Source of the DNA: Candidatus Iainarchaeum sp. | GTDB taxonomy: Archaea > Iainarchaeota > Iainarchaeia > Iainarchaeales > 0-14-0-20-34-12 | Direction of reading: 5' to 3' | DNA length: 32,000 nt | Assembly (NCBI GenBank): GCA_030649345.1 | Contig: JAUSKK010000038.1 | Span: 54,315-86,314, forward strand | In this document: in pieces, positions 1 through 27,842 of the stretch | How the letters are laid out: each line of letters opens with the position of its first letter | Numbering within the stretch: position 1 is the stretch's first letter | Notes under the pieces: generated by a model | Seen by the model: the letters and a program-made list of their open reading frames with translations, nothing else | Told to the model about the DNA's origin: nothing | Database searches by the model: none | Translations under genes and position numbers: made by a program

Positions 1-50
1 CAAAAATAAAAACAAACCTGAAATAGGCTTTTTCTTGCATTTGCATAGTT

Positions 51-3146: not shown

Positions 3147-3155
3147 ATAGTTTAG

Positions 3156-4661: not shown

Positions 4662-4669
4662 ATTTTTTA

Positions 4670-7905: not shown

Positions 7906-7954
7906 TTCTTTAAAAAACCTTAAATACTAGTTTTGGTCTTGTTTGTTGGATCTT

Positions 7955-9207: not shown

Positions 9208-10652
9208 AATTGCCGGCATTATTTTTTGCAGCAATTTTTTTCTTAACAATTTTTTCAATAAATGTATTTGCTATTTGGCCTTGGGATGAATGTGCTAATC
9301 CATCGGGCGGAACATTTACTGCGCCAGGTTCTGCAACTCAAAATGTTCACTGGTTTTATGATTCAGATGATTGGGCAAGTGCCTATATTCCTTCTTCAGG
9401 GAATTATGTGTTTTATTTGAGCGGGCCTAGCGGGCAAGACTTTGATTTGCAGCTATATTATTCCTGTGGTGGATCTCCGTTTCGGAGTTCCGCAGGCAGT
9501 ACGGCAACAGAATCTATTACTAACTACATATCTGGTGGTACAACTGTTCATATGCGTGTAATTGCATTTGGGAGCAGCAGCGGTAATTGGACTATGGGTG
9601 CCTATAAATCGTGTACTGCCAATACCAATTGGTGGTGTTCAAGCGGAGATGTGTATTGGTATGATTCTTGTGGAACCCGTGGATCTCTGAAACAAGATTG
9701 TACTGCCAGTCAAACTTGTTCTGTGGATGTTTGTGTGAATACTTGTACTTCTCATACTTCGTCTAGTTGTTCCAACGGTGATGTGTATTGGTATAATTCT
9801 TGCGGTACTCGAGAAGATTTAAGGCAAGATTGTTCGAGTTCTCAAATTTGTTCTGGCAATACTTGCCAAAATGTTGCCTGCTTTAATGATTCACAGTGTC
9901 CAAGTGATACTTTTGTTTCGAATACGCAAAGATGTTCTGCGTCCAGTGATGTAGAAGCTGTTTGGAGAAATTACTCGTGTGTCAATCCTGGAACAACTAG
10001 TTCGTCTTGTTCGTATGGTGAAGCCTATCAATTGTATGATAATTGCACATCTACTGAATATTGTAATTCCAGTACTAAAACTTGTCAATCATTTGCCTGT
10101 ACTTCTAATTCAAGCTGCGGAACCAATGCATATACTGGAAGCACGTTTTGTTCCAATAATGATGTTTACAAAAATAATGTAACCTATACTTGCAGTAATC
10201 CAAATACTTCGAGTTCTTCGTGTTCAAATTCAACCCAAGCAATTTTACAGCAAGACTGCGGTAATAATTCTACTACAACTTCCAATCGCAGATGTTCTGG
10301 TTCAGAAATTTTAGTAGACCAAACTGCAACTTTGCGCGGCTGTTCAACTGGAGCCTGTTATTCTTCAACTGGTTCAATTACTACTACAACAGAAACTGAT
10401 TGCAGTAATTTGAATTATTATGGAAGCACTGAATATTATTGTTCCAGTGATAATACGCAGAAAAGAAGCCGGCAATTGTATACTGGATTTTATTGCAATT
10501 CCAGTACAATTAGTTGTGCTCAAGGCAGTTCCTCGTATGTAAATGACCAATTGCTTGAAACCTGTGTATATGGTTGTTCAAGTGGATCATGCATTACTGC
10601 CAGACCCAATTTAGTGATTAGCAGTTCAGATATAACAATTGAGAAAACCTAA
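9204..10652 (+). CDS. Secreted Cys-rich protein with N-terminal PPC (pre-peptidase C-terminal)-like domain
   Basis: Signal peptide MKLPALFFAAIFFLTIFSINVFA. DSDDWASAYIPSSGNYVFYLSGPSGQDFDLQLYY ... VHMRVIAFGSSSGNWTMGAY fits the PPC pattern. This is followed by about 350 aa of Cys/Ser/Thr-rich modules. Confidence 0.8.
   Translation: MKLPALFFAAIFFLTIFSINVFAIWPWDECANPSGGTFTAPGSATQNVHWFYDSDDWASAYIPSSGNYVFYLSGPSGQDFDLQLYYSCGGSPFRSSAGSTATESITNYISGGTTVHMRVIAFGSSSGNWTMGAYKSCTANTNWWCSSGDVYWYDSCGTRGSLKQDCTASQTCSVDVCVNTCTSHTSSSCSNGDVYWYNSCGTREDLRQDCSSSQICSGNTCQNVACFNDSQCPSDTFVSNTQRCSASSDVEAVWRNYSCVNPGTTSSSCSYGEAYQLYDNCTSTEYCNSSTKTCQSFACTSNSSCGTNAYTGSTFCSNNDVYKNNVTYTCSNPNTSSSSCSNSTQAILQQDCGNNSTTTSNRRCSGSEILVDQTATLRGCSTGACYSSTGSITTTTETDCSNLNYYGSTEYYCSSDNTQKRSRQLYTGFYCNSSTISCAQGSSSYVNDQLLETCVYGCSSGSCITARPNLVISSSDITIEKT
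9636..9880 (+). repeat. Tandem 132-nt (44-aa) Cys-rich coding repeat, 2 copies
   Basis: CSSGDVYWYDSCGTRGSLKQDCTASQTCSVDVCVNTC versus CSNGDVYWYNSCGTREDLRQDCSSSQICSGNTCQNVAC. The GD codons sit at 9645 and 9777. Confidence 0.85.
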
Positions 10653-10662: not shown

Positions 10663-13600
10663 ATGTTGAATGAAAAAGCTAGAACACAATTGACTTTGGC
10701 ATTGCTTTTGTTAGTTGTAACTGGCGTTTCGTATTCTGTGTATGCTCCGCCGGGTGACAATGGAAATGCTCAGGATAATTTAAAAGATACTGATTTAATT
10801 TTTTCAACTGAAGAATTAAGTTCTTTGGAATTAAAACAGCAAGCTTTGCCTTATTTGAATTCTTTACTGAACACTGCAATTGAAGACGATCGCGCAAAAT
10901 TACTGGAAGCCAGAGATGCTGTTGAAGCTAGTTTGAATTCAAATTACTGGAAACGTTCCGGTGTTTTAGTTGTAGACAATCAAGTTTTTGAATTAAGTCA
11001 AACTGCAGCCAATCGAATTAAGACTTTATATAATCGTGAAAGTTCTGATTTGAATTCTGAACAATTATTGCTGGCAATATCGCGCATAGTTCAAGCAGAT
11101 CAGCAAGCAGCTGAATATACTTTGTTTTCTTTGCAGGAAATTTTTCCTCAATTAACAGATGAAAATTTGATTGCAACTATTCAGCCCATGCTTTCCAGTG
11201 CAGAAAATGCCTACGATCAAGCATTGCATCAGTTAAGTATTGGAAATTCGCCGAATGCAATTGTACACTTTCAAGAATCTTGGGATAATAGTTATCGTGC
11301 TGTTTTGTTGACTGATGAATTTACTATTCCGGAAGTAATCATTACAGAACCTTTGGCTGGCTGGTATACTCGTTTGGCCAGTATTTTGGTTTCAGGTACT
11401 CTTTGGGATGTTCAATTGGAAACCATTCCAAGTGTTGTGGTTGCAGTGAATGATTTGAATTATGTTTTCCCGCAATCCAATGGATTGTTTTCTGGAATTA
11501 TTTCTTTAACTGAAGGAAGCAATGCAATTGTAGTTTACGGAATTGACCAATATCAAAATATTGGAACTGCAGAAACTCAGGTAACTTTGGATACTATAGC
11601 TCCAGAAATTTTTGTAGCCGGTGTAGAAAATAATTCATTTAATCCAGTTTCTGTTACTCCGGTAATTGAGTTTTCAGATTTGCATTTAAATGAAACCAGA
11701 ATTGAATTAAACAATCAAATATTTATTTCAGGAACTGAAGTCTTAGAAGAAAAAGAATATTCTTTGGTTGTTTATGCTAATGATTTGGCTGGAAATGAAC
11801 AAACTCAGACTGTAAACTTTGTAATTGATCGCACAGTTCCAGAAATTGCTTTAATCAATCCCTACAATGGTCAGTTTGTGCACAATACACTAAATGTTCA
11901 AGGTACTGTGAGCGATACTTATTTAGATTACTATATATGGAAGATTGACGGAGTTGAAGTTGCACGCAATCAATCAAATTATTCTTGGAATACTCAAAAT
12001 TTTGAAGACGGAGAGCATACAGTAACTTTATTTGCAATTGATAATGCAGGAAACTCCAGTGAAACAACTGCTGCTGTTACAGTCGATAATACTTTGCCTG
12101 TGATTGAAGTTTCCGGCGTTTCAGACAATGAATTTTATAACTCTAACATTACTCCAGTAATTTTAGTTACTGAATTGAATTTAGAAATTCAGTTGTTTAC
12201 TTTGAATGATTTAGAATTTGTTTCAGGCACAGAAGTCAGTGCAGAAAATGAATACGATTTGAATGTAACTGTAATTGATAAAGCAGGAAATCGTGCTGAC
12301 CAAATAGTTTCATTTACGATTGACAAGACTGCTCCATTTGCTCAAATTGTAAATCCTTTGGAAAATTCCTTTGTGCATGAAATTGTTTCAATTCAAACTT
12401 TTGCAAGTGATTTGTATTTGGATACTCAAACTTTATTTTTGGATGGAACAGAAGTTTCTTCGAACAATTCTTTTGAATGGAATACTTTAGATTATTCTGA
12501 CGGCGAACATAGTATTGATTGGGTTGTAATAGATCAAGCAGGGAATTCTACAACAAGCAGTGTTTTGGTTACTGTAGACAATACACTTCCTGTTGTTTTG
12601 GTTTCAGGAATTCAAGAAAATGTTTTTTATAATTCAGATCGTGTTCCCTTGGTTGAAGTTCAAGATGTAAATCCAGATCAATTGAATGTATTTTTGAATA
12701 CTCAGCCTTTTGAATTAAGTAATTCCATTTCTTCAGATAACGAATATTCTTTTACTGCAATTGCTGTGGATCGTGCTGGAAATATTGGGCAGACTACTGT
12801 AAACTTTGTTTTGGATAAAACTGTTCCAGTAGTGGAAATTGTTTCTCCTGTAGAAAATTCTTTTTTGCGCCAAACTGTTGGAATCGAAGGACTTACAGAA
12901 GACAAGTATTTGAGTACAGTTGAATTATTGGTGGATGGAACTCTAGTTTCAAATAATTCTTTTTTTGAATGGAATACTTTGAACTATTCAGAAGGCTTGC
13001 ATTCCATTGAATTAATTGCTTTAGATTTAGCTGGCAATCAATCTAGTCAAACAATTCAAGTGACTGTAGATAATGTTTTGCCGGAATTGTTGGTTCAAAA
13101 TTTAACTGAAAATGGTTTGTATTTGAATTCTGATTTTACTCCCAAATTTGAATTAACTGAAACTAACCCTAGTGTAACCAGTTCTTTGTTGAATGATTTA
13201 GAATACAATTTGGAAACTGTAAGTGTAGATGGAGATTATGTTTTGGAAATTACTCACACAGACTTAGCTGGAAACTCCAATTCTTTGACTCGTACATTTG
13301 TAATGGATCAAACTTATCCAGTAACTTCAATTGATTCTCCAACTTCTGGTTCGTTTGTTCGCGGTATTGTTTTAGTTCAAGCTCAAGCCAGTGACTTGCA
13401 TTTGAGCCTAACTCAACTATTGATTGACAATGTTTTGGTTTCTTCTGAAAATGAATTCGAATGGAATACTTTAAATTACGCTGAGGGTGCTCATAAAGTT
13501 GAATGGATTGCTTTAGATTTAGCTGGAAATCAAACCAACAGTGTTTCGTATATTGTAGTAGATAATACTGTTCCAGTGATTGCTATTGTTGGAGTAACTG

Positions 13601-16600
13601 AAGGAACTTTTTATAATTCGAATCAAACTCCATTGGTTGTAGTTCATGAAACCAATCCTAAATTAACTCAAGCATTTTTGAATAACGAGCTCTTTGAATT
13701 AGATTCAACTATTGTTGAAGAAGGCGAATATACTTTAGAAGTTCAAACAGAAGACTTAGCTGGAAATACTGCTGTTCAATCTGTTTCGTTTGTAATTGAC
13801 AAAACTGCGCCTGTAACTTCCATTGATTCTCCAAGTTCTGGTTCGTTTGTTTCAGGCAATGTTTCAATTACTGCCAGTGCCAGTGACTTGTATTCTTTAA
13901 CTCATACTTTGTCTATAGATGGCCAAGTTTTGACTGAAAATAATTTTATGACTTGGAATACTTTGAATTATTCTGATGGCTTTCATGCAATTGAATGGCA
14001 TGTGCAAGATTTAGCAGGAAATGAAACCAATTTGACCTATGCTGTTACTGTTGACAACACAGTTCCAGTAATTGAATTTTTGAATTTAGAAGAAGGAACT
14101 TATTACAATCAGTTTTTGGTTCCAGAAGTTAAAATTACTGAAACTAATTTAGATTCAGTGCAGTATTTCTTAAACAATCAATCTTATATTCCTGGAACTG
14201 TAATTCAAGAAAATAAAGAATATGTTTTAGAAGTTCAAGCTTTGGATTTAGCCGGCAATCAATCGATTGAAAGTGTTTCATTTATTGTAGATACTTTAGC
14301 TCCAGTTGTGGAATTAAGTGTTCCGAGTGCCAGTAGTTTTGTTCGCGGGGTAGTGGAAATTTCGGGTTCAGTTTCTGATTTGTATTTGGATTCAACCAAT
14401 TTATTAATTGACAATTCTTGGGTTACTTCTGATTTACCATTTAACTGGAATACTTTAGATTATTCAGATGGAAATCATGTAGTTACTTTTACTGGAACTG
14501 ATTTGGCTGGAAACTCAACTACAGTTTCTGAAATCTTTACTGTAGATAATACTGTTCCAGTGTTTGTTTATGTTTTGCCGAATCAACCGTATACTCGCTG
14601 GGATGTATTGGTTGATTTTGTTTTAACTGAAATCAATAAAGGTGTTACTGAAGCTTTTTTGAATAATGAATCTTTTGATTGGCGTTCAGTAATTTCAGCT
14701 GAAGGAGATTACAATTTAGTTTTACGTCATACAGATAAAGCTGGAAATATTGCAGAAGTTTTGCGTACATTTACAATTGATAAAACCAAGCCTTGGGCTG
14801 AAATTTTAAGTCCAGAAAATAATTCGTTTGTTAAAGGAATTGTTCGCGTTTCTGCAGATGCGAATGACTTGCATGGTATTGTGTACCGTTTGGATGTAGA
14901 TCAACGTGTTTTAACTACTGGCAAATCCATTGACTGGAATACTTTTGTTGAAGGCGATGGCTTGCATGTTTTGAAATGGTTTGTAATTGATGTCGCAGCC
15001 AATGATATTTTAGTTGAACATACTGTTACTGTAGACAATACTTTGCCTGAAATTCGTTTCACCAATATTCAAAACGGAATACACTACAATTCTTCAATTA
15101 TTCCTGAAATTGAAATTGTGGAATTAAATTTGCAGAGCGTACATTATTTTTTGAACAATCAACCGTATGTTTTAGGTACTCCAATTTCTCAAGATAATGA
15201 CTATGTTTTGGAAATTCAGGTTACAGATAATGCTGGAAATTATGTTACGCGATTTATTAATTTTGTGATTGACACTACTGCGCCTGAAACAGTGTTAACT
15301 GTTCCAAACACAAATGATTTTGTAAAAGGCATGGTTTCAGTTACTGGTGAAACTTCAGATTTGTATTTAGACACCACTACTTTGTATATTGACAGTTTGC
15401 CAGTTGCGTATAGTTTTCCGTTTGAATGGAATACTGTAAATTATTCAGACGGAACACATACTGTAAGTTATACGGCTGTAGATTTGGCTGGCAATTCAAC
15501 TACTGTAAGTACAACAGTTAATGTGGACAATACTTTGCCGGCTGTAACCTATGTTACTCCAATTGTAAATTCGTATGTTCGCCAAACAGTTGAAATTAAT
15601 GCAACAATTGTTGAAACAAATTTGGAATTATTGGAATTATTAATTGACACTGAATTGATTAGTAATTCTTTGCCGTTTGAATTAAATACTTTAAATTATT
15701 CAGATGGAGAACATCAATTGTCTGTAACTTTAACAGACCAAGCTGGCAATTATTATAGAACGGATTGGACTGTATTTGTAGACAATACTGTTCCTGAATC
15801 GACTGTTTCTGAATTAATCGAGAATCCTACTTTGGTTGAACCTTTTTATTCTTTAACTGGAACTATTTTAGACTCAAGTAGTATTGAATATGTTCTAGTA
15901 AATGATCAAATGGTTTCTGTATTGGATGGAGATTTTTCATTTGATTTTAATGTAATCGAAGGTCGAAATACAATTACTGTAACTGCAGTTGATTTAGCTG
16001 GCAATCAAGTTGTTTTCTTGAAAGAAAGATTGGTAGACAAAGATTTGTTGCCTGATTTTTATGAATTATCTGTCTTGCAGTCTGATCCGTTGAATTCAGA
16101 TTCTGATTTTGGAACAACTGAAGCTGATGAATCAAATAACGAAATTTTGGATGATGCTGAAGATTTAGACCAAGATGGTTTGCCTACATTTGCAGAATAT
16201 TTTTATGGCTCTAATCCATTTTCAGATAATTCGGACGCAGATTCTTTGGATGATTTCTTTGAGTTAACTATGTCAGGCACTGATCCAGGAATTGCTGACT
16301 CAGATGAAGATGGCGTCTTAGATTCTGATGAAGACTTTGATGGAGATAGTTTAACGAATGCACAAGAAGAACAACTGCATGCCAATCCATACTTATTGGA
16401 TACTGATTCAGATGGCTTAGATGATTCTGTTGAATCTAGTTTAGGCACAAATCCAATTGAAGTGGATTCAGATCATGATGGTTTATTGGATGAAAGTGAA
16501 ATTTATTTGGAAAGCAATCCTTTGGTGTCAGATTCAGATAATGATGGTGTCTTAGATTCGTTGGAATATTATTCACAGACTTTTTCAGACTTGAATGGAA

Positions 16601-19341
16601 TTTTGCAAGTTACTATTGAAGGTCAAGGAGACTTGCGATACACTACTCAAGTTGTAGAAACACCTGAACCACATGCAGCATTGTTGGAATTACCGGATAT
16701 TGTTACAGGCTACTATGATATCTCTACGGATTCAAATTTTTTATCTGCTGTAGTGCGTTTGCATTATGCTGAAAGTGACTTGAATGGTTTGTTGGAATCT
16801 GAAATTCGATTATTTTACTACGATGAAGACTTGAATATTCTTGTAGAAGAATCCGTGCAAGGAGTGAATGAATCTGAAAATTATGTTTGGGCTCAAACTA
16901 CCCACTTTAGTTATCGTGCTGCTGGTTCCAGTAAAAATTGGAAAAGTCCAACCAGTTATCCTTGGAATCGCGATCCAATTGTTTATTCTTCTGGAGAAAC
17001 TTTGCGTTTGAAAGCCCGCGTTTATAATATTGGAATTGCTCCAGCTTCAAATGTTCCTGTGAGTTTTTATTCTGGAGATCCAAGTTCTGGTGGTGTTTTA
17101 CTTGGAACAGTTACTGTAAATAATATTCCTTCTGGTGGAAATGCTGAAGCAATTTTGACTTGGGTTGCCAGTTTGGATGTAGATTTCTTGTATGTTGTAG
17201 TGGATGCAGGCAATGTTATTGCAGAAGAATCTGAAACCGATAATAAAGCATTCCGTCAGTTTATCACAGAATTTAACGGCGATTCTGATGGTGATGGTTT
17301 AAGTGATTATGAAGAAATTAATGGAATGCGAACACAATTCAGTAATTTATTTATTAAGACAGATCCTTACGAAGAAGATACTGATGGCGATGGCTTAACT
17401 GATAATGTTGAAATGAATTTGGGTGGAGGAACTAATGCAAATCAACAGTATCTTACTAAAAGTAATCCATCTAAATTGGATTCGGATAATGATGGTTTAA
17501 CGGATTACGAAGAACTTGCTGGCCGGCAATTACGAATTACAAACAATCACTCAGATGCAGTTGCTTTATTGTCTGATTTGGAATTTGGAAATAGTTTAAG
17601 TGATAATGTGGACACTGGCACAGTTTATTCTGATGCATACATGGTTGACACCGATGCAGATGGGTTAACAGATTATCGCGAATTTGAATGGGGTTCAAAC
17701 CCCCGCTGGGTTGACTCAGATAGTGATGGACTAAAAGATGGTGTTGACGATGACCCTTCAATGTATGATGTTACTCCTCCAAGCGTGCAAATTGTTTCAG
17801 TTTATCAAGATGAATGGTTTGGATACAAAATTAAATATGTTGTGACTGCTACAGATTCATCTGGAATAATTGCTCATTGGATAATTCATGATGGCATACA
17901 AGTTGATTTTGCAACTTATGCTAATCGAAAAAATCCTGTGACTATTTCAGGTACCTTGGATGTCAGCTGGTTAAGTGAAAGTTTTACTGGCACTGTGGCT
18001 AACGTAAAAGTGGAGGATTATTCCGGTAACCAATTGATTAAAGACTTGTATTCTCAAGATGGTGTTGTCACTTCAGCCGCTGTTGCTGCTGTGAAAGAAA
18101 TTAATCGATTGTATTCTCAAGTGGATCCTTTTAGTGGGGGAATACAATCTGGAATTGCAATTAGTTTAATCCATCAAGGAGAAGATATTGTAGGCATAGT
18201 TAAAAATCCAGGCAGTATTTTGGATGGTATTCGTGGTTTAGGCACTGCAGTAGATGAGCAAGGTATTGGTGTGGTTTCTACTTTATATAATTCATTTAAG
18301 CAACGCATTGATGAATCGCATAATTCTTTGAATCCATTTAAATCCAGTGACTGGAGATATTCTTCTTATCAAGGTGGTTTTTACACTGGTTATGTGGGTG
18401 GCTTAATTATTACTTCCGTGGTAGGCGCTGGTGTTGTATCCAAAGGATTGAGTGTCATTAAAGCTGGAAGTTTAGTTTCTAAAATTTCAAAAATTAGCAT
18501 TGTAAAGAGCGCGCTGAGTATTGTAAAACAAACTCCACGAATGAAACTGTTATTGGGCGCAGCCGGAACTGTAGCTGCTACCTATTGGTTGAAAGAACAG
18601 TTCCCTGATATTGATGCATTGCAAACTTTGTCCGATTACCAAATAGGTTTTGCCACCATGGCATTAACTGCTGAAGCAGGTCCTGCCTTGGGTCGCATTG
18701 CAGGAGTTACAGCAGCTCAACAAAAACGCTTAGTTGTATTTCTTTCCCGAAATTCTAAATTTACTGTAGAAAATCGTGTGGCTTTCTTAAAGCCAGCATC
18801 AATTGACAACGGCGTAGCTAAAATATTCAGTGACTTGTCTGATGACTTACAGGATAATATTTTTATAGCATCTCACGGACAAGGCATTCCTTCATTGGAA
18901 CGTAGTGTAATTGTTTCTCGCACAAATCGATTGAAAAATGTCCCCGGAGTTGACGATGTTGTAAGGAATCTTAATAAACGTAATTGGCATGGTCATTATT
19001 TTGAATTAGATGCCGCGGATACTTTGCGAACGCGGGGTCATAATTTAATTGAATTATCTAAAAAATACCCTTTTGGTGACGGTGAACTGGATGTGTATTT
19101 CCAGCACTTAAATGGAAAGAAAATTGTTGCTGAAATAAAATCTATTCCGGCTGATAAATGGCTTACAAATAAAGGAAACTTAGATCCGCGTATTGATCGA
19201 CAATTGGATAGATATGCGCGACTTGTACAAACTGGCGATGCTCAAGAAGCATGGGTTATTTCAGAAAACACTATTTCTCCTGCTGCCAGAACGCTTATTG
19301 AAAACAAAGGAATTATTATAAAATATATTGGAGAGATTTAA
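10663..19341 (+). CDS. Giant (2,892 aa) multidomain cell-surface protein with C-terminal PD-(D/E)xK-like nuclease module
   Basis: Uninterrupted ORF with AGGTG 7 nt upstream. Domain order: N-terminal signal/anchor LTLALLLLVVTGVSYSVYA; helical region; Ig-like didomain array; two DxDxDG arrays; CARDB-like domain; hydrophobic helices (about 18370-18710); C-terminal E..D..ExK signature. Confidence 0.92.
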   Translation: MLNEKARTQLTLALLLLVVTGVSYSVYAPPGDNGNAQDNLKDTDLIFSTEELSSLELKQQALPYLNSLLNTAIEDDRAKLLEARDAVEASLNSNYWKRSGVLVVDNQVFELSQTAANRIKTLYNRESSDLNSEQLLLAISRIVQADQQAAEYTLFSLQEIFPQLTDENLIATIQPMLSSAENAYDQALHQLSIGNSPNAIVHFQESWDNSYRAVLLTDEFTIPEVIITEPLAGWYTRLASILVSGTLWDVQLETIPSVVVAVNDLNYVFPQSNGLFSGIISLTEGSNAIVVYGIDQYQNIGTAETQVTLDTIAPEIFVAGVENNSFNPVSVTPVIEFSDLHLNETRIELNNQIFISGTEVLEEKEYSLVVYANDLAGNEQTQTVNFVIDRTVPEIALINPYNGQFVHNTLNVQGTVSDTYLDYYIWKIDGVEVARNQSNYSWNTQNFEDGEHTVTLFAIDNAGNSSETTAAVTVDNTLPVIEVSGVSDNEFYNSNITPVILVTELNLEIQLFTLNDLEFVSGTEVSAENEYDLNVTVIDKAGNRADQIVSFTIDKTAPFAQIVNPLENSFVHEIVSIQTFASDLYLDTQTLFLDGTEVSSNNSFEWNTLDYSDGEHSIDWVVIDQAGNSTTSSVLVTVDNTLPVVLVSGIQENVFYNSDRVPLVEVQDVNPDQLNVFLNTQPFELSNSISSDNEYSFTAIAVDRAGNIGQTTVNFVLDKTVPVVEIVSPVENSFLRQTVGIEGLTEDKYLSTVELLVDGTLVSNNSFFEWNTLNYSEGLHSIELIALDLAGNQSSQTIQVTVDNVLPELLVQNLTENGLYLNSDFTPKFELTETNPSVTSSLLNDLEYNLETVSVDGDYVLEITHTDLAGNSNSLTRTFVMDQTYPVTSIDSPTSGSFVRGIVLVQAQASDLHLSLTQLLIDNVLVSSENEFEWNTLNYAEGAHKVEWIALDLAGNQTNSVSYIVVDNTVPVIAIVGVTEGTFYNSNQTPLVVVHETNPKLTQAFLNNELFELDSTIVEEGEYTLEVQTEDLAGNTAVQSVSFVIDKTAPVTSIDSPSSGSFVSGNVSITASASDLYSLTHTLSIDGQVLTENNFMTWNTLNYSDGFHAIEWHVQDLAGNETNLTYAVTVDNTVPVIEFLNLEEGTYYNQFLVPEVKITETNLDSVQYFLNNQSYIPGTVIQENKEYVLEVQALDLAGNQSIESVSFIVDTLAPVVELSVPSASSFVRGVVEISGSVSDLYLDSTNLLIDNSWVTSDLPFNWNTLDYSDGNHVVTFTGTDLAGNSTTVSEIFTVDNTVPVFVYVLPNQPYTRWDVLVDFVLTEINKGVTEAFLNNESFDWRSVISAEGDYNLVLRHTDKAGNIAEVLRTFTIDKTKPWAEILSPENNSFVKGIVRVSADANDLHGIVYRLDVDQRVLTTGKSIDWNTFVEGDGLHVLKWFVIDVAANDILVEHTVTVDNTLPEIRFTNIQNGIHYNSSIIPEIEIVELNLQSVHYFLNNQPYVLGTPISQDNDYVLEIQVTDNAGNYVTRFINFVIDTTAPETVLTVPNTNDFVKGMVSVTGETSDLYLDTTTLYIDSLPVAYSFPFEWNTVNYSDGTHTVSYTAVDLAGNSTTVSTTVNVDNTLPAVTYVTPIVNSYVRQTVEINATIVETNLELLELLIDTELISNSLPFELNTLNYSDGEHQLSVTLTDQAGNYYRTDWTVFVDNTVPESTVSELIENPTLVEPFYSLTGTILDSSSIEYVLVNDQMVSVLDGDFSFDFNVIEGRNTITVTAVDLAGNQVVFLKERLVDKDLLPDFYELSVLQSDPLNSDSDFGTTEADESNNEILDDAEDLDQDGLPTFAEYFYGSNPFSDNSDADSLDDFFELTMSGTDPGIADSDEDGVLDSDEDFDGDSLTNAQEEQLHANPYLLDTDSDGLDDSVESSLGTNPIEVDSDHDGLLDESEIYLESNPLVSDSDNDGVLDSLEYYSQTFSDLNGILQVTIEGQGDLRYTTQVVETPEPHAALLELPDIVTGYYDISTDSNFLSAVVRLHYAESDLNGLLESEIRLFYYDEDLNILVEESVQGVNESENYVWAQTTHFSYRAAGSSKNWKSPTSYPWNRDPIVYSSGETLRLKARVYNIGIAPASNVPVSFYSGDPSSGGVLLGTVTVNNIPSGGNAEAILTWVASLDVDFLYVVVDAGNVIAEESETDNKAFRQFITEFNGDSDGDGLSDYEEINGMRTQFSNLFIKTDPYEEDTDGDGLTDNVEMNLGGGTNANQQYLTKSNPSKLDSDNDGLTDYEELAGRQLRITNNHSDAVALLSDLEFGNSLSDNVDTGTVYSDAYMVDTDADGLTDYREFEWGSNPRWVDSDSDGLKDGVDDDPSMYDVTPPSVQIVSVYQDEWFGYKIKYVVTATDSSGIIAHWIIHDGIQVDFATYANRKNPVTISGTLDVSWLSESFTGTVANVKVEDYSGNQLIKDLYSQDGVVTSAAVAAVKEINRLYSQVDPFSGGIQSGIAISLIHQGEDIVGIVKNPGSILDGIRGLGTAVDEQGIGVVSTLYNSFKQRIDESHNSLNPFKSSDWRYSSYQGGFYTGYVGGLIITSVVGAGVVSKGLSVIKAGSLVSKISKISIVKSALSIVKQTPRMKLLLGAAGTVAATYWLKEQFPDIDALQTLSDYQIGFATMALTAEAGPALGRIAGVTAAQQKRLVVFLSRNSKFTVENRVAFLKPASIDNGVAKIFSDLSDDLQDNIFIASHGQGIPSLERSVIVSRTNRLKNVPGVDDVVRNLNKRNWHGHYFELDAADTLRTRGHNLIELSKKYPFGDGELDVYFQHLNGKKIVAEIKSIPADKWLTNKGNLDPRIDRQLDRYARLVQTGDAQEAWVISENTISPAARTLIENKGIIIKYIGEI
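11587..15795 (+). repeat. Coding tandem array: about 8.5 copies of a 492-nt (164-aa) Ig-like didomain unit
   Basis: The V-D-N-(T/V)-(L/V)-P boundary motif starts at 12082, 12574, 13066, 13558, 14050, 14542, 15031, 15523 and 15778. The spacing is 492 nt six times, 489 once, then a half unit. Each unit holds one ..EY.L.V...D.AGN...FxIDKTAP domain and one ..F.WNTL(N/D)YS(D/E)G.H...D.AGN..VDNT.P domain. Confidence 0.9.
16081..16560 (+). repeat. Thrombospondin type 3-like Ca-binding repeat array 1 (DxDxDG)
   Basis: DSDEDGVLDSDEDFDGDSL, DTDSDGLDD, DSDHDGLLD and DSDNDGVLD, each preceded by (S/T)NP. Confidence 0.8.
16993..17250 (+). other. CARDB-like beta-sandwich domain within giant protein
   Basis: GETLRLKARVYNIGIAPASNVPVSFYSGD ... 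IPSGGNAEAILTW ... LYVVVDAGNVIAEESETDNKA. The ending vvD..N.i.E..E.DN is typical of CARDB. Confidence 0.7.
17278..17757 (+). repeat. Thrombospondin type 3-like Ca-binding repeat array 2
   Basis: DSDGDGLSDYEE, DTDGDGLTDNVE, DSDNDGLTDYEE, DTDADGLTDYRE and DSDSDGLKDGVDDDP. Confidence 0.8.
18970..19338 (+). other. PD-(D/E)xK (restriction-endonuclease/Hjc-like) fold signature at C-terminus of giant protein
   Basis: HGHYFELDAADTLRTRG (E2781, helix), then GDGELDVYFQ (D2810, strand), then KKIVAEIKS (E2824-x-K2826, strand), then RQLDRYARL helix, then AWVIS strand. The order and spacing match the alpha-beta-beta-beta-alpha-beta core. Confidence 0.6.
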
Positions 19342-19343: not shown

Positions 19344-19976
19344 GTGTCTTCTGGTTTTGTTGCACAGTTTTATGTCTCTGGAAATTTATCTTCTGAAATT
19401 ATTTCCACTAAATTATTAAAAGTAGCACAAGTCCTACAAGAAAGTGGATTTACGCTTGAAAAAGAAAAATCTTTAGAATATACTTTTTACTGTAAAGAAA
19501 ACAGTTATTTTATGGAATTGTTTTTGTTTCAAGCTAATTCAGTGGATTCATTTAAGGTAATTGAATTATCAGCTACTTTAAGTTCACATCTTTCCCTGCA
19601 ATTTTGGAATAAACTTATTGATGTAGTTATCAAAGTATATAGTGTTATTCAACCAGAATTTGGATTGGGTGACGCGGAAGAGTTTTTTAATGATTTTAGA
19701 CATCCTAAAACTGAATTAGGCTGGCTTACTTTCTTTAACTCAAAACAAGTTCATTCACTGGGTGAACAAAAGTTTTCTCAAATTCCGGTGTGGAAATCAG
19801 GAGAATACGAATTGAAATTCGGAGAATACTTTGACAAAGTGTCTGCCGGCAAAATGCAGTTGTTACCTGTCTGGAAATGCGAAAAATTATCCGATGGAAG
19901 TTATCTTTTGGTATTGACTGAACAATTTGAAGGCTATCCTTCTCTAAAAGAGCTGAAACAACATTTAGGGTTGTGA
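19344..19976 (+). CDS. Hypothetical cytoplasmic protein, candidate cognate immunity/partner of the C-terminal nuclease module
   Basis: The GTG start lies 2 nt after the giant-gene stop (19339-19341). No signal peptide or TM segment. 210 aa with an alpha+beta-like composition and a GWLTFFNSKQV motif. Confidence 0.65.
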   Translation: MSSGFVAQFYVSGNLSSEIISTKLLKVAQVLQESGFTLEKEKSLEYTFYCKENSYFMELFLFQANSVDSFKVIELSATLSSHLSLQFWNKLIDVVIKVYSVIQPEFGLGDAEEFFNDFRHPKTELGWLTFFNSKQVHSLGEQKFSQIPVWKSGEYELKFGEYFDKVSAGKMQLLPVWKCEKLSDGSYLLVLTEQFEGYPSLKELKQHLGL

Positions 19977-19978: not shown

Positions 19979-20239
19979 TTATTTGTAGCTTTTGTACCAG
20001 CGTTCGTATTCTTTGTGCGTTTCAAAGCAATGCAGTATGTAAATGATTTCTTTTTCGATATAGTAAATAATTCTTGCTTGTTTTGTGACATTTTCTGTGA
20101 AATAAGGCAAGCCATGATTCAAGTGTTTGCTAACTGGATTGTCGGCAATTTTTTCAATATGTTTTCCAAATTGTTTGTTTAAAGGATTGGGTATTTTTTC
20201 AAGTTCTTTTTCAGCAGTTTCAAGAATTTGTATTTCCAT
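19979..20239 (-). CDS. RelE/ParE-superfamily toxin
   Basis: MEIQILETAEKELEKIP ... ARIIYYIEKEIIYILHCFETHKEYERW. The start was trimmed to the ATG at 20239, 1 nt after the upstream antitoxin stop (20241-20243). Confidence 0.75.
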   Translation of the reverse strand: MEIQILETAEKELEKIPNPLNKQFGKHIEKIADNPVSKHLNHGLPYFTENVTKQARIIYYIEKEIIYILHCFETHKEYERWYKSYK

Positions 20240-20240
20240 T

Positions 20241-20477
20241 TTACCACTTGAACTTTTTCTTGATTTCATTAAAAGACTTTGTTTTGATATTGCCTGCTTT
20301 CACTTCATCCATTTCTATTCGGATGCCTTTGGCAACCAGTTCTTTTTCTTCTTCATCCAGTATGCGTTCGTAAGCCAATAATGCCTGCCGAATTACTTCG
20401 GTTTGACTTCCAGCATATCCTTTTTCAATTGCTTTTTTTACAATAGTTTCATAAGGAATTCCCAAATTTACGTTCAT
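20241..20477 (-). CDS. ParD-like RHH antitoxin
   Basis: MNVNLGIPYETIVKKAIEKGYAGSQTEVIRQALLAYE resembles the ParD-type N-terminus (..G.Y.S.SEVIR.AL). GGAGG sits 7 nt upstream on the minus strand (20485-20489). Confidence 0.75.
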   Translation of the reverse strand: MNVNLGIPYETIVKKAIEKGYAGSQTEVIRQALLAYERILDEEEKELVAKGIRIEMDEVKAGNIKTKSFNEIKKKFKW

Positions 20478-20630: not shown

Positions 20631-20658
20631 TACTTTTGCCAATAGTTTATTGATTGTT

Positions 20659-20871
20659 ATGAACTTTAAGGTAATTTTAGAGAAAGGTGAAGATGGTTTT
20701 TTTGTAGTGACTGTTCCTGCTTTGCCTGGTTGTATTTCTCAAGGTGAAACTGAAAAAGAAGCTTTGGATAATATTAAGGAAGCCATTGAATTGCATGTTT
20801 CTTCTTTGGCTGAAGATGGAATTCCGATTTCTCAGAAACAAGTTGTGAAGGAAGTTGCTGTAAGGTTATAG
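20659..20871 (+). CDS. hicB: HicB-family antitoxin (UPF0150)
   Basis: MNFKVILEKGEDGFFVVTVPALPGCISQGETEKEALDNIKEAIELHV is the canonical HicB N-domain. Start set at ATG 20659 rather than TTG 20650. Confidence 0.85.
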   Translation: MNFKVILEKGEDGFFVVTVPALPGCISQGETEKEALDNIKEAIELHVSSLAEDGIPISQKQVVKEVAVRL

Positions 20872-20872: not shown

Positions 20873-21134
20873 ATGTCTAAGCTTCCGATTATTTCCGCAA
20901 ACGAAACGCTTGTTTCGTTGCGCATTAAAACGTGTTCGTTTTAATTGCGGAAAAGATTTATTGAAAATTTTATTAAAAAAAGGTTATTATATTCGAAACC
21001 AGAAAGGAAGTCATGTTCATTTGCGTCATTCTTTTTTGTTGCCTGTGACTGTTCCCAATCATAAAGTAATTGCACTAGGTACACTTAAAGCTATAATGAA
21101 AACTACTGGTTTAACTGAAAAAGATTTTGAGTAA
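20873..21134 (+). pseudogene. hicA: HicA-family toxin gene interrupted by a 52-nt insertion after codon 8
   Basis: The ATG at 20873 encodes MSKLPIIS, then runs into a stop at 20942-20944. The HicA core GKDLLKILLKKGYYIRNQKGSHVHLRH...VTVPNH...GTLKAIMKTTGLTEKDFE resumes at 20949 in the +1 frame. Removing 20897-20948 restores the canonical MSKLPIISGKDLL... reading frame. Confidence 0.75.
20897..20948. repeat. 52-nt double-hairpin palindromic insertion (REP/MITE-like) inside hicA
   Basis: Hairpin 1: AACGAAAC-gctt-GTTTCGTT (20900-20919), extended by CGC/GCG. Hairpin 2: CGCATTAAAACG-tgtt-CGTTTTAAT(T)GCG (20921-20949). The insert sits at the centre of what would be the palindrome TTTCC|GGAAA. The outer 9-bp inverted repeat is TTTCCGCAA/TTGCGGAAA (20892-20900 / 20945-20953). 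Confidence 0.7.
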
Positions 21135-21584: not shown

Positions 21585-22358
21585 ATGTATTTTATGGCTA
21601 GTGACCGAACACAAACAGGTATTGAAGGCTTGGATAAAGCATTAAATGGAGGCATTCCTTCAGGAAATTTAGTCTTATTGTCGGGTGGAGCTGGAACTGG
21701 TAAGAGTACCTTATGCTTGCAGTACTGCATTAATGGTTGTGTAAAATTTAATGAGAAAGCTTTGTTTATTTCAACAGAGCAAACGCCCACTGAATTACTA
21801 AGACAGGCTGCTCAATACAATTGGCCTTTGACTGATTTGATTAACAAAGGCAAACTCAAGATAGAATACTTTGATGTTACCAAAGGCGACGAGTTCTTGA
21901 AACGAATCGATGAAAGCATTGATCACTTTAAACCCAACAGAATTGCTTTAGATTCTTTAACCACATTAGCCGATGCTTTATTAATTTCAGACATGTCAGA
22001 AGAAACTGCTTTTAGTATGGTTCAAATTGCCGAAAGCGTAAACCCTATTCCAAGAACTGAACAAATAATTACAAAAACACTATTATACAGATTAATTGGA
22101 GCACTCAAAAAATATCATGTTACAACTTTACTCACAAGCGAATTGCCGGAAGAAGGAAAAACACTAAGCGCAGATGGAGTAAGTGAGTTTATTACGGATG
22201 GAGTAATTTTATTAAGTTATTTGAGTGTTGGTGCAACTGAATTAAGAGTTCTTAAAATAAGAAAAATGAGATATTCTGTTCACACTAAAGAATATCTGAC
22301 TTATGATTTTTCATCCAAAGGGCTTGAATGCAAACTTGAAGAACAGTTAAGTATTTAG
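21585..22358 (+). CDS. KaiC-like / RecA-superfamily ATPase (single domain)
   Basis: TGIEGLDKALNGGIPSGNLVLLSGGAGTGKSTLCLQY (Walker A), RIALDSLT (Walker B-like) and TTLLTSE. Alternative start at 21594 (MASDRTQ). Confidence 0.85.
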   Translation: MYFMASDRTQTGIEGLDKALNGGIPSGNLVLLSGGAGTGKSTLCLQYCINGCVKFNEKALFISTEQTPTELLRQAAQYNWPLTDLINKGKLKIEYFDVTKGDEFLKRIDESIDHFKPNRIALDSLTTLADALLISDMSEETAFSMVQIAESVNPIPRTEQIITKTLLYRLIGALKKYHVTTLLTSELPEEGKTLSADGVSEFITDGVILLSYLSVGATELRVLKIRKMRYSVHTKEYLTYDFSSKGLECKLEEQLSI

Positions 22359-22371: not shown

Positions 22372-22941
22372 ATGTGGGATACTGTTGCCAAACTTTTAAT
22401 GCACAAACAAATTTCCTTTGAAAAAGGTAAAATAGAAATATTTGGTCGGCTTTCATCACTGTTGCCATCAGATTCGTTTGTGACTCTACAAATGGAACTT
22501 GAGACACGTGGACTTCAAAACTTAATATATTTTAAAGCAAAAGAATCAGGCGCAAAATGGTTTGTTGAAATGAATAAATATTATCATTTGAAAGGAATGG
22601 ATGTAATTAAATGGGGGTCTGAAATAGTTACATTTGCCGGTTGGGGTGAAGCAATAATTGTAAGACGAGATGATTCAAAAAAAGAAATTGTATTTAATTT
22701 AAAAAATTCAATAACTGCAAAATTACACCCAGCCTCAGTAGTGCCAGTTGATCATTTATTTCGAGGCTTACTTTGTGGTGCAATGGCCACAATTTATGAT
22801 ATTGAATTATCTAAAATTGACGCAGTTGAAACTAAGTGTATTGCGATGGGTAGTCCAATCTGTGAATTTATTGTCAAACAAACTAGCGAATTTGATGTTA
22901 ATAATGATTTAGTTAAAGCTCAGCTAACTCCGGTAATGTAA
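22372..22941 (+). CDS. V4R domain protein
   Basis: VDHLFRGLLCGAMATIY ... VETKCIAMGSPICEFIVK. Located 13 nt downstream of the KaiC-like gene. Confidence 0.75.
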   Translation: MWDTVAKLLMHKQISFEKGKIEIFGRLSSLLPSDSFVTLQMELETRGLQNLIYFKAKESGAKWFVEMNKYYHLKGMDVIKWGSEIVTFAGWGEAIIVRRDDSKKEIVFNLKNSITAKLHPASVVPVDHLFRGLLCGAMATIYDIELSKIDAVETKCIAMGSPICEFIVKQTSEFDVNNDLVKAQLTPVM

Positions 22942-24965: not shown

Positions 24966-27842
24966 ATGGATAATAAGATGGTTTCTGGAAAAGTAATTGT
25001 TTTGTTTTTGCTGGTTTTGCTGAGTTGTACTTTAACTGCAAGCGCGCAATCTTTGAGTTCAGAAGTTGAAAACATTCAAATTCAAGCCCAAAAATATGAA
25101 TCTCAAGAAATTAGTTTCCTGCAATTAAAAATGCTGCTCAATCAAGCCAGAGAAAATATTGTCAGCAAAATTGAAAACCAAAGAATTCAAATCTCTGGCC
25201 AAGAAGAAAACAGAAACGAATTAGGCTGGAGTACAGAAAGCATCCAACAACTATTAGGAGAACCTACTGGATACGATGAATGGCTATGGTTTGAAAACTT
25301 AAGACAATCCAAACGAGTGAAAGAAAAAATTGCCAAATGGGAAAAAACAATCTGGGATGGGCAAAAAATTAAAATAACCCTAAATGCTTGGCCGCAAGCA
25401 CTCCAACACGAACAAGAAATTATTCAATTTTACTGGATTGATTTAGATTTAAAATTTAAAAAACCAGAAGATCGGCTGGAAAAAAACAAAATCATCCAAG
25501 AACTAGACACAGCCATACAAAATTACAAAAATCAAACCACGGATATTAAAGAATTTGCAAAAACAACAGTAGAACTAGAAAAACAACTGCAAACATTTTC
25601 TGAAAACAATCAAAAAAATTGCGCGGCAGCCATGGAAAACTTTTTTGAATTCACACCCCAAGAACGCCTTAGAACCCAATGGCAAGGAGTACTATTCGAA
25701 GGACAAAATTTTGAACTAGAACTCAACTTAGATGAAGGCAAAGAACCAGACCACAATTACCAATACTGGAATGCCAGAGTAGACTTCCGGCCAACAACAG
25801 ACAATTTTAAATTACCAGAATTTTTACCTCAAGAAAACAACTTACAAGAAGAAATTGCAAACCAACAACCCGAAGAATTAATTCAAGAACTTAAAAAAAG
25901 ACTAAATCAAATCAAAGAATTTGCAAAAACACTGGATATTATTCCCAATGCTTCAGCTGGGCAACAAATTCAAGAAAACTTGTACTGGATTCAAGAAGCA
26001 AGCAATGTATTAAACCAAAAAGCCAACAATCAAGAATATGGTTACACTCTAGAAAAACTTGCACAAGACTGGGAACAAATATTTCAAGAATTTACAACCA
26101 ATTATGAAAAAAATACAATTACTGAAAAAAGATTCAATGTCTTAGTCTTAGATGAACAAAAAGAACAAACATCCGCCTATTGTCAAGCCAAAGAAACAGA
26201 CTGCGGAGAAAACAATGTCTGCCAAAATGCTGTTTGTGTGAGTGCTTTAGGTGGAAATGAAATCTGTGACAACCAACAAGACGATGATTTAGATACTTTA
26301 AATAACTGCGAAGACCCAGACTGCTTTGAAACCTGCAGAAATCCGCCAGAAATAAATGAAAATAGTTTTCCGGAACCGCAAAATAGTCCGGAACAAGAAA
26401 ATTCTATTTCAGAACCTGAAAGTAATCCAGAAAATTCAAATCCAGGCTCTGAAAACAATGAATTAGAAAATTCTAATCCTGAATTAAATGAAAACAATTC
26501 TTTGCAAAATACAGGAAATGTTTTACTGCAAGCAAACGAAAATGAATCTAGGTGCGGTGAATCGGTTTGCAGAACAAATCAAGTATGCAATTCAGAAAAA
26601 GGCTGGTGTGATTGCAGGCAAGGATTCTTTGACTGTGACGGCGAATGGTTAAATGGCTGCGAAAGCCAAAGTTCCTGCAAACAATGTCAAACCAATCAAG
26701 ATTGTGCTCAAACCAGGTGCAGTGAAGACAATCGAAGACTTACTGAATTTGAATGCAAACAAGGAGATAGTTATACTGAAAATATAGCTTCAGTTGAATT
26801 GGCTGGAAGTTGTGAAATACTGAATTCTGGAGAAATTCGAGCCGGAGTATGGATTAGTGCTTGGGGTGAAGGATTTGAAAACTTTAATGAATTCAAACAA
26901 GAATACTATTCTCAAGATGATAAAAGTCATTGCTTGAAAGAATTTGAATCCTTTAAACAAGAACGCATTGAATTACAAAAATCTTTAAACAATGAATTGC
27001 TGGAATGGTTTTATGAAAATTCAGTTAAACAAAAAGTAAATGATTTTGAAAAACACACGCGTTCCATTCGTGCAATTTATGAAAGTTTTATTCGCGTCAA
27101 CGGAGACTTAGCCAGAAGCATGACTTGCTTGAATATGACTCAATTGCCTGCAGAAATTCAACCGATTTCCAAAGTAAAACTAGACGCAGGAAATGGGTAT
27201 GTTGAAATATGGGAAGAAAAAAAGACAACTGCTTTTTTTGCAGAAGGCCAGCAAACTCAAACAAGCGTGGAAGTAATTTCGCCGTATGCTACGTTTTGGT
27301 TTTTTCCAACAAGAGAAGAATTTAAAGAAGAATTCAAAAAACACTTTTTTGAAGAAGGTCCAGAATCTGAAGGGCCCAGTCCAGATGAATTGAAACAAAT
27401 CAGAAACGATTTACAGGTAATACAAAAAATTGAAAGAATTAGTGACTTGTTTGGAGGAGAAGCCAAATTAGTAATGGAAATACGAGATGGAAGTGAAGCA
27501 ATTGCCCGCGGAGTATTCTCCATTGATCCAGTGAATTTAGTTCGATTTGATAAAACGTTAGACAAACCTGAAGATACAGACGTAACTTTAGTGGTGGGTT
27601 TGGATTTTATGTATGGAATTATGGAAGGTATTTTTAAAGAACAATTCGAGAACGATGTCCAAAAACCATATTGGGAAGAACAATTTGAATTTGAAATTGA
27701 TGATGCTTTAATTGAAATTAAAATTTTCAGTAACTTAATTGGCGGTTTACTTTCTGGGCAAATTATAGTTGAACCCTTTTATCAATTGCCGAATACTCTT
27801 TTAGCATTGCAAGAATTAATGACTTTAATGCCCAAAGGATAA
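24966..27842 (+). CDS. Large secreted protein (958 aa) with Q/E/K-rich helical region, Cys-rich modules and acidic N/E/S/P low-complexity linker
   Basis: Signal peptide VIVLFLLVLLSCTLTASAQ. Cys clusters at about aa 405-460 and 525-590. NSPEQENSISEPESNPENSNPGSENNELENSNPELNENNS linker (about 26350-26500). Confidence 0.8.
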   Translation: MDNKMVSGKVIVLFLLVLLSCTLTASAQSLSSEVENIQIQAQKYESQEISFLQLKMLLNQARENIVSKIENQRIQISGQEENRNELGWSTESIQQLLGEPTGYDEWLWFENLRQSKRVKEKIAKWEKTIWDGQKIKITLNAWPQALQHEQEIIQFYWIDLDLKFKKPEDRLEKNKIIQELDTAIQNYKNQTTDIKEFAKTTVELEKQLQTFSENNQKNCAAAMENFFEFTPQERLRTQWQGVLFEGQNFELELNLDEGKEPDHNYQYWNARVDFRPTTDNFKLPEFLPQENNLQEEIANQQPEELIQELKKRLNQIKEFAKTLDIIPNASAGQQIQENLYWIQEASNVLNQKANNQEYGYTLEKLAQDWEQIFQEFTTNYEKNTITEKRFNVLVLDEQKEQTSAYCQAKETDCGENNVCQNAVCVSALGGNEICDNQQDDDLDTLNNCEDPDCFETCRNPPEINENSFPEPQNSPEQENSISEPESNPENSNPGSENNELENSNPELNENNSLQNTGNVLLQANENESRCGESVCRTNQVCNSEKGWCDCRQGFFDCDGEWLNGCESQSSCKQCQTNQDCAQTRCSEDNRRLTEFECKQGDSYTENIASVELAGSCEILNSGEIRAGVWISAWGEGFENFNEFKQEYYSQDDKSHCLKEFESFKQERIELQKSLNNELLEWFYENSVKQKVNDFEKHTRSIRAIYESFIRVNGDLARSMTCLNMTQLPAEIQPISKVKLDAGNGYVEIWEEKKTTAFFAEGQQTQTSVEVISPYATFWFFPTREEFKEEFKKHFFEEGPESEGPSPDELKQIRNDLQVIQKIERISDLFGGEAKLVMEIRDGSEAIARGVFSIDPVNLVRFDKTLDKPEDTDVTLVVGLDFMYGIMEGIFKEQFENDVQKPYWEEQFEFEIDDALIEIKIFSNLIGGLLSGQIIVEPFYQLPNTLLALQELMTLMPKG

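Follow-up and report, generated by a model that had tools for sequence, protein, structure and literature searches.

Polymorphic toxins are a main means of contact-dependent warfare in bacteria, and in archaea they are known from computational prediction alone. Classical polymorphic toxins have been considered rare in archaea (Zhang et al., 2012, PMC3482391). A large expansion of archaeal polymorphic toxins, including EndoU-like and RNase A-like tips, has been predicted (Makarova et al., 2019, as cited in PMC7297114 and PMC8416519), and none had been characterised experimentally as of 2021 (PMC8416519). Among toxin tips with a restriction endonuclease (REase) fold, Tox-REase-7 carries the signature GxxxE, IxD, ExK and Q (Zhang et al., 2012, PMC3482391). 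The VARTIG modules of Thermococcales, which are polymorphic-toxin-like, combine a large archaeal Ig-domain protein that has a hypervariable C-terminus with variable small genes downstream (PMC8416519). Here we analyse a 32,000-nt stretch of the 86-kb contig JAUSKK010000038.1 (the window, meaning the whole stretch), from a metagenome-assembled genome (MAG) of the DPANN archaeon Ca. Diapherotrites. It contains a giant gene whose product was identified by exact look-up as MDO8428551.1, an ‘Ig-like domain repeat protein’. The 3′ end of this gene probably encodes an archaeal polymorphic toxin with an exchangeable nuclease tip, which would be delivered to a neighbouring cell, and its immunity gene probably lies directly downstream.

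The last ~410 residues of the giant protein (P0001) comprise, in order, a pre-toxin domain (NPF...GFYTGY), a basic K/S-rich stretch, an h2-h3 handle, a short linker, and the nuclease tip (Table 1). An exhaustive HMMER search of 1.84 billion representative proteins recovered 23 relatives, which makes this a rare family; the named relatives are annotated at source as ‘Ig-like domain repeat protein’, ‘VWA domain-containing protein’ or ‘hypothetical’, and none as a toxin. The module ranges across Iainarchaeota/Diapherotrites, Woesearchaeota, Altiarchaeota, and Natrialbaceae (Halobacteria), with WP_252491159.1 of Natronococcus among the haloarchaeal homologues. A search of genome contigs with the handle alignment found two DPANN genomes, and a scan of metagenomes with the handle pattern gave no match. 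Relatives came from the exhaustive search alone: word-indexed homology searches gave no useful match for the C-terminal 413 aa, the downstream protein (P0002) or the tip alignment. Their negatives call for caution, given that such a search with the C-terminal 413 aa (18100-19338) missed the parent protein itself, though it was in the collection. The original prediction had stated that either of its two proposed architectures would be unusual in a surface protein of an archaeon. The rarity of the family agrees with this, but the class had already been predicted for archaea, as noted above from the papers that cite Makarova et al. (2019). The locus is less puzzling than the original prediction supposed. 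Its class is known for archaea by prediction, and the pre-toxin module, tip and partner are unclassified in Pfam.

The closest full-length relative, P0007, is from a Candidatus Iainarchaeum genome. BLASTP similarity between the two giant proteins extends over aa 2-817 and 1145-2734 of the window protein and then ceases, with the module boundary near aa 2734. The last ~135 residues of P0007 are unrelated to the tip in the window; they are negative in Pfam and contain a GWDHI..H motif, which is EndoU-like. Tips of the GWxHI..H type stand behind the same module in P0007, P0018, P0020, and P0022, and those of P0020 and P0018 have weak, sub-threshold matches to EndoU/BECR (PBECR1) in Pfam, so that these alternative tips may tentatively be assigned as RNases. 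Other relatives have further REase-like sequence-motif variants as tips. Close homologues thus share a conserved body and differ in unrelated tips, as expected of polymorphic toxins.

Related loci also hold orphan cassettes of a tip and a candidate immunity gene. L001 has three successive tips, one at the 3′ end of a large gene and two in the C-terminal modules P0008 and P0013 that come after it. The orphan modules start in or just before the h2-turn-h3 segment (...GLVGSAYLLKEVFPDIEALDELYYTSLGGAPIFLTVG.GK) and diverge after it, and each of the three tips has a small open reading frame (ORF) behind it. DNA comparison of the three handle copies in L001 gave 100% identity over 122 nt and 94% over 299 nt. 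The array in L007 consists of a giant protein with the tip type of the window, a partner ORF, a signal-peptide protein (GWEHI..GH) with its own partner ORF, P0019, and a further partner ORF. The signal-peptide protein (232 aa) has a typical signal peptide (...NTYSA|E) and a GFGWEHIIGEGH motif like that in the EndoU-like tips of P0007, P0020, and P0022, and is followed by a 171-aa ORF; the two lie at L007 2776-4004 and look like a secreted toxin/immunity pair that stands on its own. In L001, both homologous immunity ORFs end in ...PKEAYTEIEDVKDEVFWPPRRS[RK]R (1266-1440 versus 4516-4690). Here, the DNA that follows homologous immunity ORFs is 94% identical (1389-1683 versus 3077-3374) and runs into the next orphan tip, which looks like a recombination scar across the immunity 3′ end and the orphan 5′ end. 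A gene for an RDD-domain (PF06271) membrane protein adjoins the cassettes in L001 (4756-5196), L003 (11338-12729), and L009 (2310-2786), and could encode an accessory factor; none was identified in the subset of window ORFs that was scanned.

The gene directly downstream of the tip, encoding P0002, starts 2 nt past the toxin stop codon and has a GGAGAG sequence ~9 nt upstream. The ORF directly 3′ of this tip type belongs to the P0002 family at 6/6 loci: the window, L003 after P0029, L007 twice (one of them duplicated in L008), L009 after P0024, and L010 after P0011. The members are similar in pairwise BLASTP (E 1e-30 to 3e-7) and have a GW[LI]TFF motif in common, and the linkage holds though the tips sit on very different scaffolds. 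BLASTP groups the downstream ORFs strictly by tip type. In L001, ORF1 is similar to ORF3 (E = 2e-66), as are their two tips, and ORF2 is similar to a Woesearchaeota ORF that follows P0010, which has the same tip type (E = 1e-54); the ORF after P0007 matches no downstream ORF of L001 or P0010. A partial ORF after P0021 (L004) had no P0002 match, and spans only the poorly conserved N-terminal 93 aa, hence it is uninformative. The downstream genes therefore co-vary with the tips, in the manner of cognate immunity genes. P0002 itself has no match in Pfam (Imm families included), NCBIfam, PADLOC, or PDB sequences, and NCBIfam and PADLOC likewise gave no match for the tail of the giant protein or for the ORFs upstream.

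Hydrophobic segments are absent from 9/9 candidate immunity proteins, P0002 included. P0002 has an isoelectric point (pI) of 5.3 and the tip a pI of 9.2, a charge pattern typical of nuclease/immunity pairs. In P0011 a tip of the window's family is preceded by an N-terminal signal/anchor segment (-0.86) and a short Ig-like region, with no other hydrophobic segment, and P0019 and P0024 similarly carry the tip behind a signal segment. An exported tip that is always paired with a partner free of hydrophobic segments, and presumably cytoplasmic, fits the usual scheme of toxins whose site of action is the cytoplasm of another cell.

The tip is predicted, on a structural model, to adopt a PD-(D/E)xK nuclease fold, and we regard this fold as real. 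The AlphaFold model, built on a family alignment of the 16 of 23 relatives that cover the C-terminal domain, has a predicted local distance difference test score (pLDDT) of 86.9 and a pTM of 0.81. It contains the alpha-beta-beta-beta-alpha-beta core that the original prediction had named beforehand as a test (in model numbering, H66-81, E85-92, E99-105, E111-117, H133-147, and E153-158), with E2781 on helix 1, D2810 on strand 2, and E2824-x-K2826 on strand 3. In a Foldseek search against PDB, all top matches were PD-(D/E)xK nucleases (E 1.7e-5 to ~1e-3, probability ~1.0), with NucS/EndoMS, Card1, Can2, EcoO109I, AF1548, XisH, and McrC as structural neighbours. Conservation across homologues, also named beforehand as a test, is borne out by the tip alignment: G2777, E2781 and E2824 do not vary, D2810 is found in 14/16 tips (and in the other two after a one-residue register shift), and K2826 is found in 14/16. 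Conservation, AlphaFold placement and Foldseek matches together raise the nuclease motif above chance, and bear out the earlier nuclease call; the strings and residue numbers quoted with it were all correct when checked on the translation. P0015 and P0012 have Thr at the K2826 position of ExK, and may be inactive tips or tips with a relocated lysine.

None of the 16 tips reached a nuclease family of Pfam. Among the Tox-REase-1..10 models the nearest was Tox-REase-9 (E = 0.19, for one member), and Mrr_cat (PF04471) scored below its cut-off (19.3 bits versus 21) for the tip in the window only. A single-sequence search of PDB returned only noise (a tag-like LEVLFQ match and ribosomal S12), and a profile search returned only a weak UPF0102 match (E = 0.007).

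The pre-toxin module carries the family signature given in Table 1. A regex places this motif 280-490 aa before the C-terminus of 14 relatives, or 15 proteins with the giant protein itself, and it overlaps the hydrophobic segment ‘TM1’; the L007 giant protein has a divergent version. ‘TM1’ has small-xxx-small patterns. The basic stretch that follows has 7 K/R and no acidic residues, and is conserved as ...ASKLSKAGKIIKSAAS... in P0007, P0008, and P0010. The handle alignment contains an invariant LKE.FPDI. In the AlphaFold model of the module, which is of low confidence overall (pLDDT 56.6), helices are predicted for aa 2489-2593; the block with ‘TM1’ has pLDDT 85-94, and ‘TM1’ forms the last helix of the well-predicted first ~110 residues.

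Hydrophobicity was assessed in 19-residue windows on the Hessa biological scale, without positional terms, and calibrated on genuine membrane segments. Scores range from -2.5 to +2.2 for the nine UbiA helices of the window and from -2.8 to 0 for the N-terminal signal segments of neighbouring secreted ORFs and of the L001 surface protein, and a true C-terminal anchor from a related DPANN locus scores -2.2. ‘TM1’ scores +3.6, and h2 and h3 score +8.9 and +8.6. In the haloarchaeal relatives, no segment in the equivalent region is under +7. In the L007 giant protein, the counterpart of ‘TM1’ (...GYHIGYVSEQAVLLEVAAAKAGK...) is plainly no membrane helix, and the equivalent segments of P0029/L007-type relatives are non-hydrophobic. 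On this crude scale, the scores are suggestive, no more, that ‘TM1’ falls short of a stop-transfer segment of membrane-helix grade, and argue strongly that h2 and h3 do so. The original prediction had placed the three segments correctly, but described ‘TM1’ as a strong transmembrane candidate, where it is borderline against the genuine helices, and h2 and h3 as weaker hydrophobic segments, where their scores (~+8.7) are not of membrane grade. The stretch between ‘TM1’ and h2, which had been described as amphipathic and K/S/I-rich, is basic, and its amphipathicity as an alpha-helix is weak (hydrophobic moment 0.1-0.4). With these values, the topology puzzle posed by the hydrophobic block mostly dissolves.

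We infer the following route for the toxin. The giant protein would be exported by the Sec route via its N-terminal signal sequence, and the long, acidic, Ca-binding Ig/TSP3 stalk would present its C-terminal end. The marginally hydrophobic Gly/Ala-rich helices would remain in solution while the protein is exported by Sec and, on contact, enter the membrane of the target; once inserted, they would help the basic tip to reach the target cytoplasm. In the Sec-exported diphtheria toxin, marginally hydrophobic helices can pass the translocon. The target would be a neighbouring cell, either a competitor or the host of the DPANN cell. There, the tip would cut nucleic acid via a metal site formed by E2781, D2810, E2824, and K2826, and the soluble 210-aa partner would protect the producer and its kin by neutralising the tip. 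The DNA of the helices would double as a homology handle for swaps of tip/immunity cassettes. The original prediction had offered, as one of its readings, that the hydrophobic block is a translocation or pre-toxin module that carries the nuclease into a target cell. In substance this agrees with what we find (a hydrophobic block within a conserved pre-toxin module, an exchangeable tip, and a cognate partner), but its translocation role would rest on analogy. A bolder form of the proposal, which is conceivable though doubtful, is that the signature domain may, with the h2-h3 hairpin and the glycine-zipper helix, constitute an undescribed, self-contained translocation device, by which a ~2,500-residue fibre would inject a nuclease across a single archaeal membrane without a secretion machine; for this DPANN episymbiont the target would be its host cell, so that the system could serve host exploitation as well as kin competition.

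Several observations weigh against a delivered polymorphic toxin, or against parts of the proposed route. The family is small (23 relatives), and tblastn found no orphan cassette or extra handle copy in the window. The part played by the module in translocation, proposed by analogy, is the weakest link. Pfam is silent for the module in all 18 aligned copies (E <= 1), including PT-TG and other pre-toxin families; Foldseek found no fold analogue of the module in PDB (nothing below E = 2), and the h2/h3 part of the model has pLDDT 35-60. A hydrophobic hairpin would be no universal requirement, because relatives without hydrophobic h2/h3 must also deliver their tips. ‘TM1’ is a borderline case and not clearly outside the membrane class, and it is followed by a Lys-rich stretch that would fit the positive-inside rule for a cytoplasmic tail. 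The exit of the C-terminus from the producer cell is presumptive, and the four catalytic residues are expected to cluster from their secondary-structure positions in the model. PD-(D/E)xK toxin tips include both DNases and tRNases, as in the CdiA-CT structures. Because such toxins can be either, the substrate of this tip may be DNA or RNA.

Among the alternatives to this route, the one that survives best, although we consider it unlikely, retains a polymorphic toxin and denies its helices a translocation role. The helices would provide a site for proteolytic release, an element that retains the tip until contact, and/or a recombination handle, and entry would depend on proteins of the target cell or on the N-terminal part of the tip. 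Pre-toxin domains are likely processing sites (Zhang et al., 2012, PMC3482391); moreover, the handle is conserved in its DNA, no similarity of the module to known translocation domains was detected, and the P0029/L007-type and haloarchaeal scaffolds possess the signature motif without hydrophobic h2/h3. Nevertheless, a subset of DPANN and other members keeps, despite low overall identity, two hydrophobic helices joined by an E.FP[DE] turn, which suggests selection on the protein beyond that on DNA alone, and a target archaeon with a single membrane would need to be crossed by some route.

A second alternative, which we regard as improbable, is that the tip is a nutritional nuclease, tethered to the surface or secreted, that scavenges extracellular or host nucleic acid, and that the downstream protein is a barstar-like inhibitor that protects the cell only during synthesis. 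The source is a DPANN archaeon, a group with reduced biosynthesis, and other family members export the tip. Barnase–barstar is an example of a secreted nuclease with a cytoplasmic inhibitor, and ‘simple barnase-barstar-like systems’ are reported in methanoarchaea (PMC3482391). However, a scavenging enzyme is not expected to be swapped for unrelated RNase-like tips on one scaffold, nor are arrays of orphan tip/inhibitor cassettes expected, and free-living Halobacteria bear the same scaffold.

Least likely of all, in our judgement, is the other reading of the original prediction, in which ‘TM1’, with or without h2/h3, would be a C-terminal stop-transfer anchor that holds the nuclease in the producer cytoplasm, as a sensor–effector or abortive-infection-like suicide module triggered by events at the surface stalk and restrained by the downstream ORF as inhibitor: no segment after the signal peptide is more hydrophobic than ‘TM1’, which is followed by the basic stretch (pI 11.4) in accord with the positive-inside rule, the adjacent gene would encode a cytoplasmic inhibitor, and the giant gene lies among toxin–antitoxin modules, but this reading is disfavoured by segments that score outside the range of genuine membrane helices and anchors, by a hydrophobicity that is not conserved in the haloarchaeal relatives or the L007 giant protein, by the same tip on signal peptides without any membrane-spanning segment, by the tip swapping and identical-handle orphan cassettes that are hallmarks of delivered polymorphic toxins, and by the lack of any defence-system match in PADLOC.

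In the body of the giant protein, the stalk, Pfam identifies Big_13, Big_7 and Big_3 Ig-like domains, CARDB, and TSP3_bac; the TSP3 units are bacterial-type calcium-binding repeats, and the stalk is strongly acidic (pI 4.1). The segment at aa 10-28 (Hessa sum +0.5) is the sole clearly membrane-grade segment of the giant protein, and the signal-like N-terminus would provide the export signal expected of a polymorphic toxin system. The giant protein has zero cysteines, and a Cys-rich secreted protein is encoded just upstream of it. This protein (P0005; 482 aa, 9204-10652, immediately 5′ of the giant gene) has an N-terminal signal/anchor segment, no Pfam match, and 38 cysteines in repeated ...DVYWY[DN]SCGTR..L.QDC... 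units. P0005 is dissimilar to the ORF 5′ of P0029, so that no conserved upstream accessory gene was found in this comparison. Farther upstream, a 171-aa ORF (8692-9207) also has an N-terminal signal/anchor segment and no Pfam match.

The chromosomal neighbours of the giant gene (IMP dehydrogenase, RibBA, AsnRS, UbiA prenyltransferase, a KaiC-like ATPase, and V4R proteins) provide a typical archaeal setting. On the 3′ side of the toxin/immunity pair are a ParE/RelE-like ORF (19979-20269, - strand; Pfam E = 9e-4) with a 78-aa partner upstream (20241-20477, - strand), and then a second small toxin–antitoxin pair, HicB (20650-20871, + strand) followed by HicA (20910-21134, + strand). A PIN-domain ORF is located at 6110-6619. 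The region with ParE-like, HicAB and PIN genes looks like a small conflict-gene island. The KaiC-like ATPase gene (21585-22358) is followed by one for a V4R-domain protein (22372-22941), and a second V4R gene lies at 7943-8524; these have no evident relation to the toxin. P0006 (958 aa, 24966-27842) has a signal-like N-terminal segment, 25 cysteines, and no Pfam match, and is an unannotated secreted protein.

Table 1. Features of the giant gene, its predicted toxin region, and the gene downstream (positions in the window).
Feature	Position	Strand	Details
Giant gene	10663..19341	+	2892 aa; from ORF list and translation
Signal peptide or signal anchor, N-terminal	10663..10746	+	aa 1-28; hydrophobic core LTLALLLLVVTGVSYSVYA
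Helical pre-toxin domain, conserved	18100..18441	+	aa 2480-2593; last helix contains ‘TM1’; kept in 16 large relatives
Family signature NP[YF]...Y..F..G[WF]Y.GY	18331..18393	+	aa 2557-2577, here NPFKSSDWRYSSYQGGFYTGY; regex and alignment
‘TM1’	18373..18438	+	aa 2571-2592, GGFYTGYVGGLIITSVVGAGVV; Gly-rich, borderline-hydrophobic, GxxxGxxxG glycine-zipper
Lys/Ser/Ile-rich basic stretch	18439..18540	+	aa 2593-2626; pI 11.4
h2-turn-h3 ‘handle’	18541..18708	+	aa 2627-2682, ...YWLKEQFPDIDAL...; last strongly conserved block; recombination handle of orphan cassettes
h2			aa 2627-2643, MKLLLGAAGTVAATYWL
h3			aa 2661-2682, IGFATMALTAEAGPALGRIAGV
Conserved helical linker	18709..18864	+	aa 2683-2734; common to relatives bearing other tips
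Exchangeable toxin tip, predicted PD-(D/E)xK nuclease domain	18865..19341	+	aa 2735-2892 plus stop; AlphaFold, Foldseek, motif conservation
Predicted catalytic residue E2781	19003-19005	+	
Predicted catalytic residue D2810	19090-19092	+	
Predicted catalytic residue E2824	19132-19134	+	
Predicted catalytic residue K2826	19138-19140	+	
Candidate cognate immunity gene	19344..19976	+	210 aa; MDO8428552.1, ‘hypothetical’, P0002; homologous to ORFs after sister tips

The locus provides a clean, testable DPANN example of a polymorphic toxin, with a tip boundary at ~aa 2735, four candidate catalytic residues, a cognate partner, and a conserved module. The tip, the immunity protein and the pre-toxin module are without a Pfam family, and could seed three new families. 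If the helices do mediate crossing, they would indicate a route of toxin entry into cells that have one membrane and an S-layer, and a role for the giant surface proteins of DPANN symbionts towards their hosts.

In terms of function, the closest analogue of the giant protein is the CdiA-CT/CdiI pair of contact-dependent inhibition (CDI) systems. Both have a very long surface filament, a conserved body, an exchangeable C-terminal nuclease, and an immunity gene directly downstream, and in both the orphan tip/immunity cassettes retain a conserved pre-toxin stretch as a recombination handle. PD-(D/E)xK-fold CdiA-CT domains include the DNase of Escherichia coli EC869 o11 and the tRNase of Burkholderia 1026b. 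The giant protein differs from CDI proteins in being archaeal, in its Sec-type signal and Ig/TSP3/CARDB stalk, and in a boundary formed by the NPY...GWY.GY helical domain and the h2-h3 handle; the TPS domain, FHA repeats, and CdiB partner were not found with Pfam. A VENN string at aa 321 was rejected as a pre-toxin boundary, being a chance match in the stalk at the wrong position, so that there is no VENN boundary; a PAAR string in the giant protein was likewise rejected as a chance match at the wrong position.

The tip family, with GxxxE ... [EI][IL]D ... ExK, resembles Tox-REase-7 as a REase-fold toxin tip, although the Pfam models are unmatched. NucS/EndoMS, Mrr, EcoO109I, and Card1/Can2 have the same core, with E on helix 1, D on strand 2 and ExK on strand 3, at 12-22% identity and TM-scores of 0.39-0.49; these are cytoplasmic repair, restriction, and CRISPR-ancillary enzymes with other partner domains, and are not tips of secreted proteins. 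Hydrophobic helices serve toxin translocation in the TH8-TH9 hairpin of the diphtheria toxin T-domain, the hydrophobic hairpin of pore-forming colicins, and the transmembrane helices of Tse6. The module shares with these the placement of marginally hydrophobic Gly/Ala-rich helices beside the catalytic domain of an exported toxin, which is an analogy only, with no detected similarity in sequence or fold.

Among archaeal systems, those predicted by Makarova et al. (2019) are likewise large secreted proteins with C-terminal toxin domains and adjacent immunity genes; the comparison is drawn from papers that cite that work, so that the scaffold described here may already be listed in it. The VARTIG modules have an Ig domain as their variable part, with no toxin domain identified, whereas the variable part of the Ca. 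Diapherotrites giant protein and its relatives is a predicted nuclease or RNase-like tip, accompanied by a conserved cognate partner.

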